Of a stretch of 64,000 nucleotides of DNA, positions 3,236 to 26,343 are shown piece by piece. Below the pieces are notes generated by a model, which ran no database searches, was not told the DNA's origin, and saw only the letters and a program-made list of their open reading frames with translations. The stretch lies in IMG/VR virus record IMGVR_UViG_3300031813_000003, positions 64,001 through 128,000 of that record; one strand, written 5' to 3'. The stretch's first letter is position 1, and the number at the start of each line of letters is the position of its first letter. This DNA comes from a virus (taxonomy: Duplodnaviria > Caudoviricetes). A program made the position numbers and the translations under genes.

Positions 3236-4354
3236 ATGAAACCGATAATAGCTGTATTCACTGACCCACATTTTGGAAATAAGGGTCATGATTTGAAAGT
3301 GTTTGAGCAACAAATGCTGTTCTTTGAACAGCAATTCTTTCCATACATACTAAAACACGATATAAAGTTTGTTGTATGTTGTGGAGATTTTTATCACGAT
3401 AGAAATAAAATTGATTGGTATATTCAAAACGAACTAAAACGAAGATTTTTTCAATGGTTTGATGATAATGATGTAGAACTTCATACTTTAGTTGGTAACC
3501 ATGATACTTATTATAAATCTACTTTAGACCAAAATTCACTTTCAGAAACTACAAAGTTCTTTACTAATGTTCATGCTTATGTCAATCCAACTAGGGTAAC
3601 CTATGCACCATATACAATTGGGTTCAACCCTTGGATACTTGACAATAAGAATCCAAACCTAACTGAAAGAGTTGATATTCTCCTGGGGCATTTTGACGTA
3701 GTTGGATTCCCAATGATGAAAGGAATCACATCTAAGGATGGTCTAAATCCGAAAGACCTTGCTAAGTATAAATTGGTTCTCTCGGGGCATTATCACATTC
3801 ACCATATCCAAGACAACTTTCATATGGTTGGGAGTCCATTTCAGCTCTCTTGGAATGATTTTAATGAACCAAAGGGATTCTTAGTCCTTGATAACAATTT
3901 CAATTATGAATACATCCAGAACCAGACAACACCACAGTTCATTAAGATTTACTATGACGAGGGCAACATAGAAGTTCTAGGGTTAGATTATGATGATGAA
4001 CCTATCCCTATGTCAAAAGAAAAATCATTAGAAGTTGCTAGTAACAATTACTGTAGGTTGTTTACTAGAAAGGTTGATGATCAAATGAAACTTGAGTTAT
4101 ACCACACAAGTTTACTTGCTGTATCATGTGATGATTATAAAATTGACATTGTGAGTCTTCAGGATACTGTAGAAGATTTTGATTCAACTGAATTTGATGC
4201 TAAGTTTGAAGAAGGAGAATCAACTTTACAATTGATTATCAGCTGTCTTGAAGGTATGACCTTTGAGCCTGGAATCGATAAGGATTTGTTAATAGAATTA
4301 AGTAAAACTGAGTATAAGACTGCATACAATGAAGTTTTGTCTATAGGAGAATAA
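3236..4354 (+). CDS. 47: recombination endonuclease subunit, Mre11/SbcD-like
   Basis: DPHFG, GD, VGNHD, GHF, SGHYH metallophosphoesterase motifs. Confidence 0.92.
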   Translation: MKPIIAVFTDPHFGNKGHDLKVFEQQMLFFEQQFFPYILKHDIKFVVCCGDFYHDRNKIDWYIQNELKRRFFQWFDDNDVELHTLVGNHDTYYKSTLDQNSLSETTKFFTNVHAYVNPTRVTYAPYTIGFNPWILDNKNPNLTERVDILLGHFDVVGFPMMKGITSKDGLNPKDLAKYKLVLSGHYHIHHIQDNFHMVGSPFQLSWNDFNEPKGFLVLDNNFNYEYIQNQTTPQFIKIYYDEGNIEVLGLDYDDEPIPMSKEKSLEVASNNYCRLFTRKVDDQMKLELYHTSLLAVSCDDYKIDIVSLQDTVEDFDSTEFDAKFEEGESTLQLIISCLEGMTFEPGIDKDLLIELSKTEYKTAYNEVLSIGE

Positions 4355-4539: not shown

Positions 4540-6254
4540 TGATTGAGTTTCAAAAACTAAAATTTAAAAATGTTCTTAGTTATGGAAATAATTTCACTAC
4601 TATAGAATTCAAGGAAGGTATCAATCGATACTTTGGCGTGAATGGATCAGGGAAGTCAACTCCACATCTAGATGCCTTAACCTTTGTCCTCTTTGGCAAA
4701 CCATATAGAGATATCAATAAAAGTCAGTTGATCAATTCAAAGAACAAGAAGAATCTTGAAGTATATCTCACATTCATGAAACAAGATGATTTCTTTAGGA
4801 TTGAAAGAGGAATTAAACCTGATTTCTTCAGGATATACAAGAATGATCAATTAGTCCCTGTATCATCTACTGTCAGAGGATACCAAGATATCCTAGAAGA
4901 AGATATCCTTCAGTTTGACGAAAACATTTATAATCAAGTTACTGTCAAGTCCCTCACAAAGAACATGTCATTCATGACATTGAAGAAAGCAGATAAACGT
5001 AAGGTAATTGAGAATCTTTTTGATATTGAAGTATTTTCAATCATTGGAAAGAATCTTAAAACAAAGATTGATGCTACTGAACTAGAGATAAAAGCAATCA
5101 ATAAAGATATCGAAAACACAAATCTTTTAATCATTCAAGAACAATCTAACCTAGAGAAATTGACTAATTTGAAGCGTAGAATAGAATCTGAAACTAATCA
5201 AAACATCCAATTATACAAAGATGAAATCAAAGAACTGGAAGCAACAAATGCTAAATACGTTATAGGATTGGGAATTATAGCAAAGAAAAAAGATCAGAAA
5301 ACGGCAAAACTTCAGGAGATTTCTACCCTCAAAGGATTTATAAACAAATCATTAGCTGCCAAAGCAACAGCAGAGGCACTGATAGAAATGAATGGGAAGA
5401 AAGTCAAGTTTCTGACAAATACTTGTGGGGAATGCCCCAAGATCAAAGAACTTATGAATGATTCTGAATTGGAAGAAGCATATAAGTTTTTAGAAGGGTA
5501 TAATAAAATTTCAGAAGTTAGACAGGAAGAGTTAAAAAACCTTGATACTGATTTAAATAAGATCAATGAGATTCTATCAAATGAAAGATTTGTTACAGAG
5601 AATCTAGCTAAAAACAAAAGAAGAATTATTGAACTTATGACGGCAATCAATAAAAGTTCTGAGTCTGTAATTGAAATCGATGAATCAAAATTGAAAGAAT
5701 ACAACTCAAAATTGATTGTATTGAAATCAGCTTTCAATACAAAATTTAACACAAAAACACATTTATCTTTACTTAGAGGATTGTGTTCTGATGATGGAAT
5801 CAAGACATTTATCATCAAAAAGTATCTTCCAACAATAAACAAAATACTTAATACATACCTGACAAAATTTCAAACAGACATTGTTTTCAACTTTGATGTT
5901 GAGTTTAATGAAGTAGTTCTTACTAAGTATAAAGAGGATTATACTTACGAATCATTTAGCCAAGGGCAAAAGAAACGTATTGACTTAGCAGTTATGTTTG
6001 CGTTTATAAAGTTTGCGCAGATGAAGAATAAAAAATCTGATACCAATCTTCTGATTATGGATGAAGTATTAACTTCCTTAGATCAACAAGGGACTGAAAG
6101 TGTTATGCAAGTTCTATCAGATTATAGGGATAAGAATAACAAATGTATCATCACTATAAATCACCTTACAGATATGAATCAAGAGTTTTTTGATTATAGC
6201 TATAAAGTAACATTAGAAAAAGGATTTTCAAAAATAACAGAGGAACAATCATGA
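4539..6254 (+). CDS. 46: recombination ATPase subunit, Rad50/SbcC-like
   Basis: Walker A GVNGSGKS, coiled coil with CGEC hook, FSQGQ signature, LLIMDE Walker B. Confidence 0.93.
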   Translation: MIEFQKLKFKNVLSYGNNFTTIEFKEGINRYFGVNGSGKSTPHLDALTFVLFGKPYRDINKSQLINSKNKKNLEVYLTFMKQDDFFRIERGIKPDFFRIYKNDQLVPVSSTVRGYQDILEEDILQFDENIYNQVTVKSLTKNMSFMTLKKADKRKVIENLFDIEVFSIIGKNLKTKIDATELEIKAINKDIENTNLLIIQEQSNLEKLTNLKRRIESETNQNIQLYKDEIKELEATNAKYVIGLGIIAKKKDQKTAKLQEISTLKGFINKSLAAKATAEALIEMNGKKVKFLTNTCGECPKIKELMNDSELEEAYKFLEGYNKISEVRQEELKNLDTDLNKINEILSNERFVTENLAKNKRRIIELMTAINKSSESVIEIDESKLKEYNSKLIVLKSAFNTKFNTKTHLSLLRGLCSDDGIKTFIIKKYLPTINKILNTYLTKFQTDIVFNFDVEFNEVVLTKYKEDYTYESFSQGQKKRIDLAVMFAFIKFAQMKNKKSDTNLLIMDEVLTSLDQQGTESVMQVLSDYRDKNNKCIITINHLTDMNQEFFDYSYKVTLEKGFSKITEEQS

Positions 6255-21701: not shown

Positions 21702-21730
21702 TTGACATAAAAATGATCTTTTGCTATAGT
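21702..21730 (+). promoter_or_regulatory. sigma70-type early promoter
   Basis: TTGACA-17-TATAGT. Confidence 0.7.
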
Positions 21731-21779: not shown

Positions 21780-22073
21780 ATGAGCAAAGCAACCAAGACC
21801 ATCACTTCCGCAGACGTTTCCTCCATCATCAAGACCATTCCGAATGGTCACATGTTCACCGCAACCTTCGTTAAGGCAAACGGCGAAACTCGCAAGATGA
21901 ATTGCCGCACTGGTGTGGTGAAATACCTCAACCCGAATCCTTCGAGGGTCAAAGCACCGAATCCTTCGCATCTGGTAACCGTCTACGATGTCAAGAGCAA
22001 AGGTTACCGCACGATCAACTGCACTACGGTCACCAAGATCGTTGCTGAGAAACGGGTCTTCGCAGTAGCGTAA
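21780..22073 (+). CDS. SH3/Sm-like (WYL_2-type) beta-barrel protein, copy 1
   Basis: FTATFVKANGETRKMNCRTGV...VTVYDVKSKGYRTIN. Confidence 0.7.
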   Translation: MSKATKTITSADVSSIIKTIPNGHMFTATFVKANGETRKMNCRTGVVKYLNPNPSRVKAPNPSHLVTVYDVKSKGYRTINCTTVTKIVAEKRVFAVA

Positions 22074-22395: not shown

Positions 22396-22704
22396 ATGAA
22401 AAAGGCAAAGAAATCGTCAAGAGAACAGGTAATCACCCCAGGAGATATCCATACTCTACTTTCTATCATACCCAAAGGTCACACTTTTAGTGTCCTCTTC
22501 ACCAAGAAGGATGGGCAAGCTAGACTGATGGATTGCCGTATGGGTGTGAAGGCATACCTCAATCCGAATCCTTCAAGGCCCAAACCAGCAATGCCTGAAA
22601 ACATAGTGACTGTGTTCGATATGCAGAAAAAAGCATATCGCCACATCAATATCGATACGACAATCACTATCAAAGCCGAAGGGTCTACTTTCTATGTCCG
22701 GTAA
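22396..22704 (+). CDS. SH3/Sm-like (WYL_2-type) beta-barrel protein, copy 2
   Basis: FSVLFTKKDGQARLMDCRMGV..YLNPNPSR..VTVFDMQKKAYRHIN, clear paralogue of 21780. Confidence 0.7.
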   Translation: MKKAKKSSREQVITPGDIHTLLSIIPKGHTFSVLFTKKDGQARLMDCRMGVKAYLNPNPSRPKPAMPENIVTVFDMQKKAYRHINIDTTITIKAEGSTFYVR

Positions 22705-22879
22705 AATATACTTCAGACCTAATTCCAGTGAACGTGATCCGCATAGATGTTATTGTGGATCATGTAAAAAGTACTTTAACCCATACACAGCACCTAAATA
22801 TCAAAATTACACAGGTATTCCTGATACATTTCAATGCCCTTTGTGTGGGCATATTGGTGAAGTTGACAGAGATTATTAA
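22694..22879 (+). CDS. small Zn-ribbon protein
   Basis: CGSC...CPLCG. Confidence 0.55.
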   Translation: MSGKIYFRPNSSERDPHRCYCGSCKKYFNPYTAPKYQNYTGIPDTFQCPLCGHIGEVDRDY

Positions 22880-22885
22880 AAGCCA

Positions 22886-23058
22886 TGCTAGGCTTGCTAC
22901 CTAGCTAGTGGGGATGACACCCCATGATCGAAGCGGAGTAGCTACCGCAAAAAACAGGGTAGAGGTCAACCTTAGACTCCTGATAGCAGTAGGGTCAGAG
23001 TAGGAACGGTGGAGGGAAGTTATGTGACTATCCCCATGAAGCTGTCCAACTCCTGCTG
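22886..23058 (+). ncRNA. candidate structured RNA (several hairpins plus K-turn helix), class unknown
   Basis: GC-rich gap with no credible ORF; four hairpins then ACGGU-GGA-GGGA...UCCC-CAUGAA-GCUGU; G-U pairs favour + strand. Confidence 0.55.
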
Positions 23059-23088
23059 AAGTTAAATCTAAATCAAAAGGAAGCAAAA

Positions 23089-23430
23089 TTGGAACCTCTT
23101 ACTGTATTTTTATTGATCTTTGTTTTTGCTGCTAGTACTGTTGCTTCAATAAGGTATACAAGTTGTTTTGAACTATTTATGGTGTGCGTCATTGGAACTA
23201 TGTTCATGGTAATGGTATCATTTATTGATGATTCTTCACACATAGACCATGAATTGCTTGATCATAAAGTAATAGAAACACCAACAGAGATAATTGTAGT
23301 GACTCCTTCAAGGAATTTCACTTTCAAATCAATTGAAGATAGGTCTGCTCTGACTGCAAAAAGATTTTTCATCAGGAAGTACAAGAATGCTTGGGGAATA
23401 GATATAGACCAAACATTAGTTTGGTTATAA
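23089..23430 (+). CDS. membrane-anchored protein (paralogue of 23443)
   Basis: Two N-terminal TM segments; EDRS..AKRFFI..WG. Confidence 0.6.
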   Translation: MEPLTVFLLIFVFAASTVASIRYTSCFELFMVCVIGTMFMVMVSFIDDSSHIDHELLDHKVIETPTEIIVVTPSRNFTFKSIEDRSALTAKRFFIRKYKNAWGIDIDQTLVWL

Positions 23431-23442
23431 AGGAGATTTTAA

Positions 23443-23808
23443 ATGGATACCATTACTATTTCGTTTTTGCTTACAATAATATTATTTGTTTGTGGGATAG
23501 TATTAATAAAAAAGTATAATGAAGATGATTTAGGTGCAATTCTTATGCTGATAGGAATTATTATAGGAACTATTGCAATTGTATGGTCTTTTAACAAAGA
23601 ATATCCTACGACAAATATACCTGTGCAGGTTTTAATTTTTGATCACAAAAGTAAACTTCTTGTAGAGGTTAATGATAATGTTGAATCACCTTTTGAATTT
23701 ACTAAGCTAGAAGATAGAAGTATGTTCCAAGCTAAACGATTCTATATTCAAAACTATAATAACTATTGGGGAATGGAAATGACACCTAAACTCAAATGGG
23801 AGAAATAA
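23443..23808 (+). CDS. membrane-anchored protein (paralogue of 23089)
   Basis: Two TM segments; EDRS..AKRFYI..WG. Confidence 0.6.
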   Translation: MDTITISFLLTIILFVCGIVLIKKYNEDDLGAILMLIGIIIGTIAIVWSFNKEYPTTNIPVQVLIFDHKSKLLVEVNDNVESPFEFTKLEDRSMFQAKRFYIQNYNNYWGMEMTPKLKWEK

Positions 23809-25373: not shown

Positions 25374-25640
25374 ATGAATATTCCAGATTTAATTAACGGT
25401 AGTTTTGAGTTGTGTGGTGGATTGCTTTGTTGGTTTAATGTCAAAAAGCTTTTAATAGAGAAAGAAATCAAAGGTGTTTATTGGCCTATCCAAGGATTCT
25501 TCTCTGCCTGGGGTCTTTTTAACATTTTCTTTTATAGTAATTTACAACAATGGTCTTCTTTCCTTGGTGGAATCTTCATGGTTATAGCTAACATCACTTG
25601 GGTTGTGTTGGCTTGGTATTATACTAAAGCTAACCAATAA
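25374..25640 (+). CDS. PQ-loop/SemiSWEET-like small membrane protein
   Basis: Three hydrophobic helices, K..KGV motif. Confidence 0.55.
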   Translation: MNIPDLINGSFELCGGLLCWFNVKKLLIEKEIKGVYWPIQGFFSAWGLFNIFFYSNLQQWSSFLGGIFMVIANITWVVLAWYYTKANQ

Positions 25641-26343
25641 TTAGTTGCCAATTTTTACATTTTCCACTCATTATCTTTCGGTTCAATGTTAAAGATTTAC
25701 TAAAGGTTTGCCAAGCATACCCATTTTCTTTACACCATTCTTGTATGTTAGAGAAATTTGTAAAATGAATCACTATATCATCTGCTGTTATGATTTTGTA
25801 ATCTTTTTGCCGAGCTCTCCTTAAATTGATTGACATTTGTTTTCTACTCTCATCACTTTTATAAAATTCTTTTATTCCATCTGATTGTCTCTTACGTTTT
25901 TCATCAGATGCTTTTTTACCATAGTTTGGATTTTTTGTCGGGTCTTTATATAATGCTTTTTTACTTTGTGATATAAGTTTTCTAGTTTCTGGAGAATTTA
26001 CTCTAACATAAGCATTATTTTTGGCTAACCAAATAGAATATGTTTCAGGATCATTGAAATTTATTCTATTACCTCCACTACCACCAATACACATATTATA
26101 TGTATCTTTACGATCAACAAACCATTGATCTACAATTTGAGTTTCCAACTCATATGCATGATCAACATCAAGACAATAATGAAGTATTTGGTATGTGAAC
26201 TTATCTTTACCATATTTTTTAACAGCTAATGATAATAGTTTACCAGAACCAATATAACCATCGTTTAGATTATAAGTAGAATGAACACCGATATACATTT
26301 TTAAATTGACAATGTTTGTAGTTAGATATACAATATGATACAT
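25630..26343 (-). mobile_element. GIY-YIG (Seg-like) homing endonuclease, paralogue of 242-943
   Basis: MYHIVYLTTN..YIGVHS..YIGSGKLL; NPNYGKKAS NUMOD3-like; GATAAATA late motif at 26371-78. Confidence 0.85.

Follow-up and report, generated by a model that had tools for sequence, protein, structure and literature searches.

K-turns of the type found in helix P2 of the SAM-I riboswitch, the Kt-7 type, are laid out as an NC stem, a G-A dinucleotide, a G-C-rich C stem, a 3-nt bulge and a second G-A. The same layout occurs in a non-coding stretch of about 180 nt at 22879–23058 (+) of the window, in a lake-water T4-like phage; the window is the whole stretch of DNA analysed, 64,000 nt long, and comprises bases 64001–128000 of a 215,974-base IMG/VR virus record. 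The likeness extends to an A-G pair at 3b-3n and a C-G pair adjoining the bulge, and the letters around the phage turn closely resemble the SAM-I consensus. Unlike SAM-I, the phage RNA is without a four-way junction, without P3/P4 and without a SAM-binding core, and there was no match to RF00162 at an E of 10. Its K-turn helix is a simple capped hairpin with a freely varying terminal loop, and closes directly into the outer helix. The initial annotation, made from the letters of the window, had not called this RNA a SAM riboswitch, and the missing RF00162 match and the lack of P3/P4 on the K-turn helix agree with that.

Few non-coding RNAs with complex folds are known from phages, and most of these are without known function. 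The stable small RNAs of T4 (species 1 and 2, rnaC/rnaD) are processed from polycistronic precursors. Like these, the present RNA belongs to a T4-like phage, is structured, has no terminator of its own and lies within a multi-gene transcript, so that processing would be needed for release in both cases. The T4 RNAs sit in a tRNA cluster, whereas the present RNA lies about 80 kb from the 22 tRNA genes of its phage (ARAGORN), the comparison being one of setting and not of sequence. Two genes of that 22-gene cluster, outside the window at G000:C1:175376-175450 and 178143-178217, are suppressor-type tRNAs with anticodons tta and cta (ARAGORN), and TAG terminates just 9 of 159 long ORFs of the phage genome; stop-codon read-through or recoding of late genes may be involved.

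A further parallel is offered by the Y-RNA-like RNAs (YrlA/YrlB) from RNA-repair operons of bacteria and phages, which are likewise non-coding RNAs among RNA-repair-type genes; near the phage RNA such genes are Rnl1, a CCA-adding enzyme, an RlaP-family nucleotidyltransferase and a Pnk-like kinase. Unlike YrlA/YrlB, the phage RNA has no tRNA-like module and matches no Rfam Y-RNA, and its most divergent homologue, in an N4-like contig (L161), is free of RNA-repair-type genes in the 13.5 kb examined. The phage encodes no Ro/TROVE protein, and the idea of a Y-RNA-like ribonucleoprotein is not supported. The locus also resembles the Rfam motifs of the Weinberg/Breaker type and those of an IMG/VR survey (PMC10690425): it is intergenic, G+C-rich, multi-helical and covarying, and comes from uncultured phages and a lake metagenome. 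Unlike the Weinberg/Breaker motif sets, it matches none of the 4227 models of Rfam 15.

The phage genome is T4-like, encoding a gp43-type DNA polymerase, a baseplate wedge protein and Rnl1, and the phage is present in at least 17 lake or freshwater metagenome sequencing runs (DNA). No RNA sequencing run was found to contain it. Microdiversity was sought in four metagenome runs, which gave only fragmentary identical contigs. The intergenic gap (22880–23088) is bounded by the plus-strand ORFs 22694–22879 and 23089–23430. TAA, TAG and TGA stops are scattered through all three plus frames of the gap, and no credible plus-strand ORF was found in any frame of 22879–23058; the sole open frame of the gap is a 61-aa TTG-initiated ORF on the minus strand, while the credible genes of the surrounding stretch all run on the plus strand. 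An alternative genetic code was considered and rejected, since the three stops occur together in the plus frames and recoding opens none of them. The G+C content of the RNA stretch is 49–50 % vs 34 % for the phage genome, an excess that matches the habit of stable RNAs in A/T-rich genomes. The GC-rich gap without a credible ORF from which the initial annotation started is therefore real.

Taken singly, the window sequence is uninformative. The minimum free energy (MFE) fold (ViennaRNA) has a z of -1.33, with 19 of 200 shuffles equally good, and the minus strand folds nearly as well as the plus strand. Likewise, a K-turn pattern scan of the genome returned 3 sites vs a mean of 2.8 in 20 Markov shuffles; a K-turn in this single sequence is no more than chance would give, and the claim of a K-turn rests on its conservation in homologues. 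Two other K-turn-like patterns lie at 4310 and 48072 (+) of the window, a number that chance predicts. Searched at the gathering score, the whole window gave no Rfam 15 family match to the RNA, and at E values up to 10 the region and its homologues L013 and L141 gave chance-level matches, which places the RNA outside the known Rfam classes, as first proposed. The DUF805 RNA motif (RF03081) was considered and rejected, at 18.2 bits against a gathering score of 51.1 (E = 1); this match was found in the window and was absent from L013 and L141. No tRNA or tmRNA was found in the window (ARAGORN), and blastn of the window region and of the L161 RNA against 50,697 GenBank phage records gave no match. 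A 19-bit covariance-model match elsewhere in the phage's own genome lies inside a 187-aa ORF and was judged spurious as a second copy. As the single-sequence fold, the K-turn pattern and the database searches are insufficient alone, the case depends on relatives.

Four distinct sequences are available: the window, L013, the ENA lineage and L161, with covariance model scores of 233.7 bits for the window, 210.5 for L013, 164.8 for L141 and 65.9 for L161. L013, a 4.2-kb JGI contig of a related freshwater T4-like phage, was reached via one relative (46 % identity) of the downstream protein; its element (L013:3246-3430) is 79 % identical to the window in nucleotides, and the downstream gene is barely alignable between the two at the DNA level. 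The ENA lineage (L141/L154/L156), also of related freshwater T4-like phages, was reached in ENA and Logan assemblies via the second downstream ORF (23443–23808); its element (L141:56-241) is 83 % identical to the window and identical in four contigs from different samples. The most divergent homologue (L161:4654-4846, E 5e-18) turned up in an IMG/VR scan for a pattern taken from the 5′ domain; its IMG/VR contig measures 31.7 kb, has a G+C content of about 55 % and carries an ATPase gene and RNA-polymerase genes of N4-like (Schitoviridae) type. The remaining IMG/VR pattern scans gave only chance matches, in coding regions or terminators, as did the metagenome pattern scan. Of two genome pattern scans, one was without matches and the other matched Bosea, Humitalea and an Acidimicrobiia MAG; these sites resemble protein-gene starts, have no model match and were rejected. 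Model R2 gave no convincing match on 7 cultured N4-like phages, nor on 7 IMG/VR phages with WYL_2 relatives.

Table 1. Positions of the RNA, its structural elements and its surroundings in the window
Feature	Position	Strand	Evidence or remark
Nearest strong sigma-70-type promoter upstream	21702–21730	+	11/12 consensus positions, extended -10; consensus match only
61-aa zinc-ribbon ORF, upstream neighbour	22694–22879	+	Pfam zinc-finger match, E 1.4e-5
Whole folded RNA: 5′ multi-helix domain and 3′ K-turn hairpin	22879–23058	+	Covariance model; no ORF
P1 5′ arm (tentative), with 22983–22987, closing the 5′ domain	22882–22886	+	One both-sided change, one unpaired cell
H1, 6 bp, 5–7 nt loop	22887–22905	+	4/6 pairs changed on both sides; all cells paired
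H2, 6 bp, 6-nt loop	22908–22925	+	One pair with three pair types; all cells paired
H3, 4–6 bp	22933–22948	+	One both-sided pair change in two sequences; all cells paired
A-rich junction strand, then G-rich block	22949–22963	+	Almost invariant in 4/4 homologues
H4, 4 bp, conserved 7-nt loop	22964–22978	+	2 pairs changed on both sides; 94 % of cells paired
3′ domain outer helix, 5′ arm, with 23052–23058	22987–22993	+	Invariant in three T4-like lineages
Middle helices and NC stem, 5′ strand, with 23041–23051	22999–23010	+	4 pairs changed on both sides
K-turn non-bulged strand: 3n G, then G-A of the predicted tandem sheared pairs	23011–23013	+	Invariant in 4/4
K-turn C stem and terminal loop	23014–23034	+	3/4 pairs changed on both sides; all cells paired
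K-turn bulged strand: 3-nt bulge, G-A, A at 3b	23035–23040	+	G-A-A invariant
A/U-rich single-stranded tail, then Shine-Dalgarno of next gene	23059–23088	+	Alignment, predicted folds
113-aa ORF with hydrophobic N-terminus, downstream neighbour	23089–23430	+	Paralogue of ORF 23443–23808

The relatives point to a conserved, compactly folded non-coding RNA with a 5′ domain of four hairpins, between which the junction strands are nearly invariant, and a long irregular 3′ hairpin that the K-turn is predicted to bend sharply (Table 1). The structural model was built on the window and L013, with L141 and L161 kept out of its derivation. Between the first two, none of the 46 pairs is broken and 6 are compensated; L141 differs from the window by 4 compensatory, 2 one-sided and 4 broken pairs. 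In the four-sequence alignment, which was fitted to the model and hence flatters the pair counts, 95.1 % of pair cells are standard pairs. Covariation among homologues had been proposed as a check on the fold, and it is found in that alignment: 18 of 46 pairs are changed on both sides, vs 1–5 in six slid controls, in which pairing was 30–44 %, and the observed values were reached by 0 of 500 shuffles. With n = 4 distinct sequences, three of them from one clade, the set is too small for an R-scape-type covariation statistic. At least one compensated pair is found in each of H1, H2, H3, H4, the middle helices of the 3′ domain and the K-turn C stem. Conserved G-U pairs at no fewer than five positions are compatible with the plus strand alone, and the RNA is assigned to that strand for this reason. 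Together with the covarying helices, these pairs bear out the initial annotation of a structured RNA on the plus strand. At the level of sequence, the comparison of relatives establishes the conservation, the strand, the helices and the features of the K-turn.

The first three hairpins stand as originally drawn, being present in the MFE fold and supported by covariation; in H2 the closing G-U pair is invariant and the loop nearly so. A fourth hairpin had also been proposed, and one exists (22964–22967 paired with 22975–22978), but its proposed form, with a 3-bp stem and a 4-nt loop, and an outer 4-bp clamp are both broken in homologues. The long closing helix likewise exists, but its 5′ arm is the upstream copy of a repeated heptamer (22987–22993) and not, as had been thought, the one at 22999–23005: in L013 the downstream copy is unable to pair, and the upstream copy is the counterpart of the helix that in L161 is replaced by a different one of 5 bp (4761–4765 with 4832–4836). 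The middle helices of the 3′ domain are interrupted by a single purine-purine mismatch and, at 23006, by a bulge of one base. Support is poor for the closing helix P1 and for a 3-bp helix around H4; the assignment of P1 is uncertain, since two other pairings compete with it, one extending the 3′ outer helix and one a 3-bp alternative with 22958–22960. Kissing of the H1 and H3 loops was considered and dropped, as was a five-base motif common to loops, both being confined to the T4-like lineages and lost in L161. After the RNA, the window and the ENA lineage share a conserved tail that is predicted to be mostly unpaired.

The K-turn lies where it was first placed (23007–23017 and 23031–23044), with its features kept in all four sequences and both flanking stems covarying among them. 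In the window the NC stem is formed by 23007–23010 with 23041–23044, and in L161 it shows one both-sided and one one-sided pair change with pairing kept. Positions 3n and 3b are G 23011 and A 23040, and the A-G 3b-3n pair is kept in 4/4 homologues, in which the G-A dinucleotides at 23012–23013 and 23038–23039 are also invariant. The C stem pairs 23014–23017 with 23031–23034, the pair adjoining the bulge being G-C in 4/4, and its capping loop is variable in sequence and in length, from 5–7 to 17 nt. The bulge (23035–23037) is always of 3 nt and varies in sequence, with U as the third base in all four. All sequence-level features of a consensus K-turn are present, and from them sheared pairs and a kinked geometry are predicted.

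No promoter or terminator belonging to the RNA itself was found flanking it. Beyond the promoter listed in Table 1, the next equally strong plus-strand sigma-70-type site is at 26306, and no plus-strand terminator was found after 22268; the RNA is for these reasons probably contained in an early polycistronic transcript. The only sizeable minus-strand ORF nearby (25630–26343) has an identical L014 gene with a faint NUMOD3 match, which suggests a homing-endonuclease-like insert. Separately, a contig of the ENA third lineage carries an 880-aa gene with DnaB_C, intein-splicing and LAGLIDADG domains about 3 kb downstream of the RNA locus.

Around the RNA are also found, apart from the RNA-repair-type genes named above (the kinase being of P-loop type), two WYL_2 (Sm-like SH3) paralogues, located at 21780–22073 and 22396–22704 of the window in the same early operon. 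An obligate partnership of the RNA with the WYL_2 proteins was rejected: WYL_2 relatives of 42–50 % identity occur in seven IMG/VR phages without the RNA, and the L161 record contains no WYL_2. In the three T4-like lineages the gene order opens with WYL_2 followed by the zinc ribbon. It continues in the window with the RNA, the 113-aa gene, a 121-aa gene and the kinase, in L013 with a 77-aa gene, the RNA, a 114-aa gene and a 121-aa gene, and in the ENA lineage with a 99-aa gene, the RNA, a 120-aa gene and the kinase. Homology links the 77-aa gene to the 99-aa gene, and the 113-aa protein belongs with those of 120/121 aa to a single family of paralogues. The window lacks the 77/99-aa gene and the ENA lineage the 113-aa gene; given these differences in order, the RNA has been kept despite loss or gain of either neighbour. 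In L161 both flanking genes are unrelated to the T4-like flanks.

The zinc-ribbon ORF is also conserved in L013. In the ENA lineage it is frameshifted: compared with the window and L013, 1 nt is deleted, which splits the gene into two frames (L154:987-1181). The deletion is identical in five contigs of separate assemblies (L153, L154, L155, L156, L157), which indicates either a real frameshift (a pseudogene or a programmed shift) or a shared assembly artefact. Downstream, the adjacent paralogues 23089–23430 and 23443–23808 each have a hydrophobic N-terminus and a conserved C-terminal domain, and their proteins have no Pfam or PHROG match. A profile search of 1.8 billion proteins yielded 19 members of the 113-aa protein family, including the 120-aa protein of the ENA lineage.

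Taken together, the observations favour, with a probability of roughly 0.55, a conserved RNA outside Rfam that is probably an autonomous module, cut from the early transcript and provided with a protein partner. The preference for an autonomous module is based on the position of the RNA between unrelated genes in T4-like and N4-like phages and on the absence of a visible expression platform. Counted against this reading is the constant location of the RNA, with a conserved linker, some 20–30 nt upstream of a gene of one small membrane-protein family in the three T4-like lineages.

That location is the starting point of the main rival, a cis-acting leader (a riboswitch aptamer or a protein-binding translational operator) controlling the translation or stability of the next gene, which we hold to be unlikely. 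In 4/4 cases the next start codon follows the RNA on the same strand at a distance of 20–40 nt, and in the three T4-like lineages the next gene is of one family (a 113/114-aa or 120-aa paralogue). The linker and Shine-Dalgarno region are nearly identical in the window and the ENA lineage, despite a different downstream paralogue. Additionally, a K-turn and junction strands that hardly vary are typical features of riboswitch aptamers such as SAM-I, lysine and c-di-GMP-II. However, neither a terminator nor a conserved Shine-Dalgarno-sequestering helix is present, the region being 45–66 % unpaired with different predicted folds in three homologues. The downstream gene of L161, encoding a 101-aa Cys-rich protein, is unrelated, and more distant members of the membrane-protein family are without the RNA. 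Control of the adjacent gene would thus be less likely than an autonomous module.

The lack of a promoter or terminator and the intercistronic position would also suit an RNA-processing signal, for example a self-cleaving ribozyme, at which the early polycistronic transcript is cut between its cistrons, and small self-cleaving ribozymes are common between phage genes. The compact multi-helix fold with invariant junction nucleotides could be read in the same way. However, no Rfam ribozyme family matched at E up to 10, 180 nt is large for a small self-cleaver and K-turns are not known as a feature of the small self-cleaving classes, and we regard this explanation as improbable.

Very improbable is a non-functional remnant, of a decayed gene or a mobile-element scar, that folds by accident. 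The 61-aa minus-strand ORF and a single-sequence fold energy no better than that of shuffles could be taken as signs of one. Against this, the identity of the RNA is 75–83 % while the diverged flanking proteins have fallen to 46–64 %, the RNA is present in an unrelated phage family and has been retained through independent losses of either neighbour, and its pairing is preserved by substitutions, so that covariation has already largely refuted accidental folding. Least credible of all is a CsrA/RsmA sponge, which the initial annotation had entertained as titrating a host regulator through repeated GGA motifs: the window sequence does hold several GGA triplets, but the idea fails because no loop GGA is conserved, the sole GGA kept in 4/4 being the structural one engaged in the predicted sheared pairs of the K-turn and the others lying in stems or being variable, and there is no match to CsrB/RsmY/RsmZ-type families.

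As an autonomous module, the RNA would be transcribed inside an early operon that starts near 21730 and would probably be trimmed out at its A/U-rich flanks. Its most likely role would be that of a scaffold or decoy to which a protein of the host or of the phage binds, the K-turn fixing the angle at which its two domains meet. A phage-encoded partner of the L7Ae type is not supported, since neither phage record contains a gene for a K-turn binding protein of that type. The RNA was also considered as a mimic of the 23S rRNA stalk base, an idea that was dropped, as only 7-mers are shared.

More tentatively, the RNA may be the founding member of a new, horizontally exchanged class of phage RNA. 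It would then be either a ligand-binding aptamer or a decoy or scaffold that binds protein and acts on conserved host machinery, such as a defence that targets RNA or the apparatus of RNA repair and translation, and unrelated T4-like and N4-like phages would be using the RNA in hosts of very different G+C. In terms of classification it is a new family of RNA that incorporates a known motif, the comparison covering Rfam 15 and the GenBank phage records.

The size of 180 nt suits probing, ligand screens, pull-downs and structure determination, and the K-turn provides a simple experimental handle: point changes in the G-A dinucleotides should abolish folding and function. The occurrence of the RNA in two unrelated phage families indicates a portable function rather than a quirk of one lineage, and since the early cluster of the T4-like phages is rich in RNA-repair-type enzymes, a role in the contest between host and phage over RNA is worth testing.
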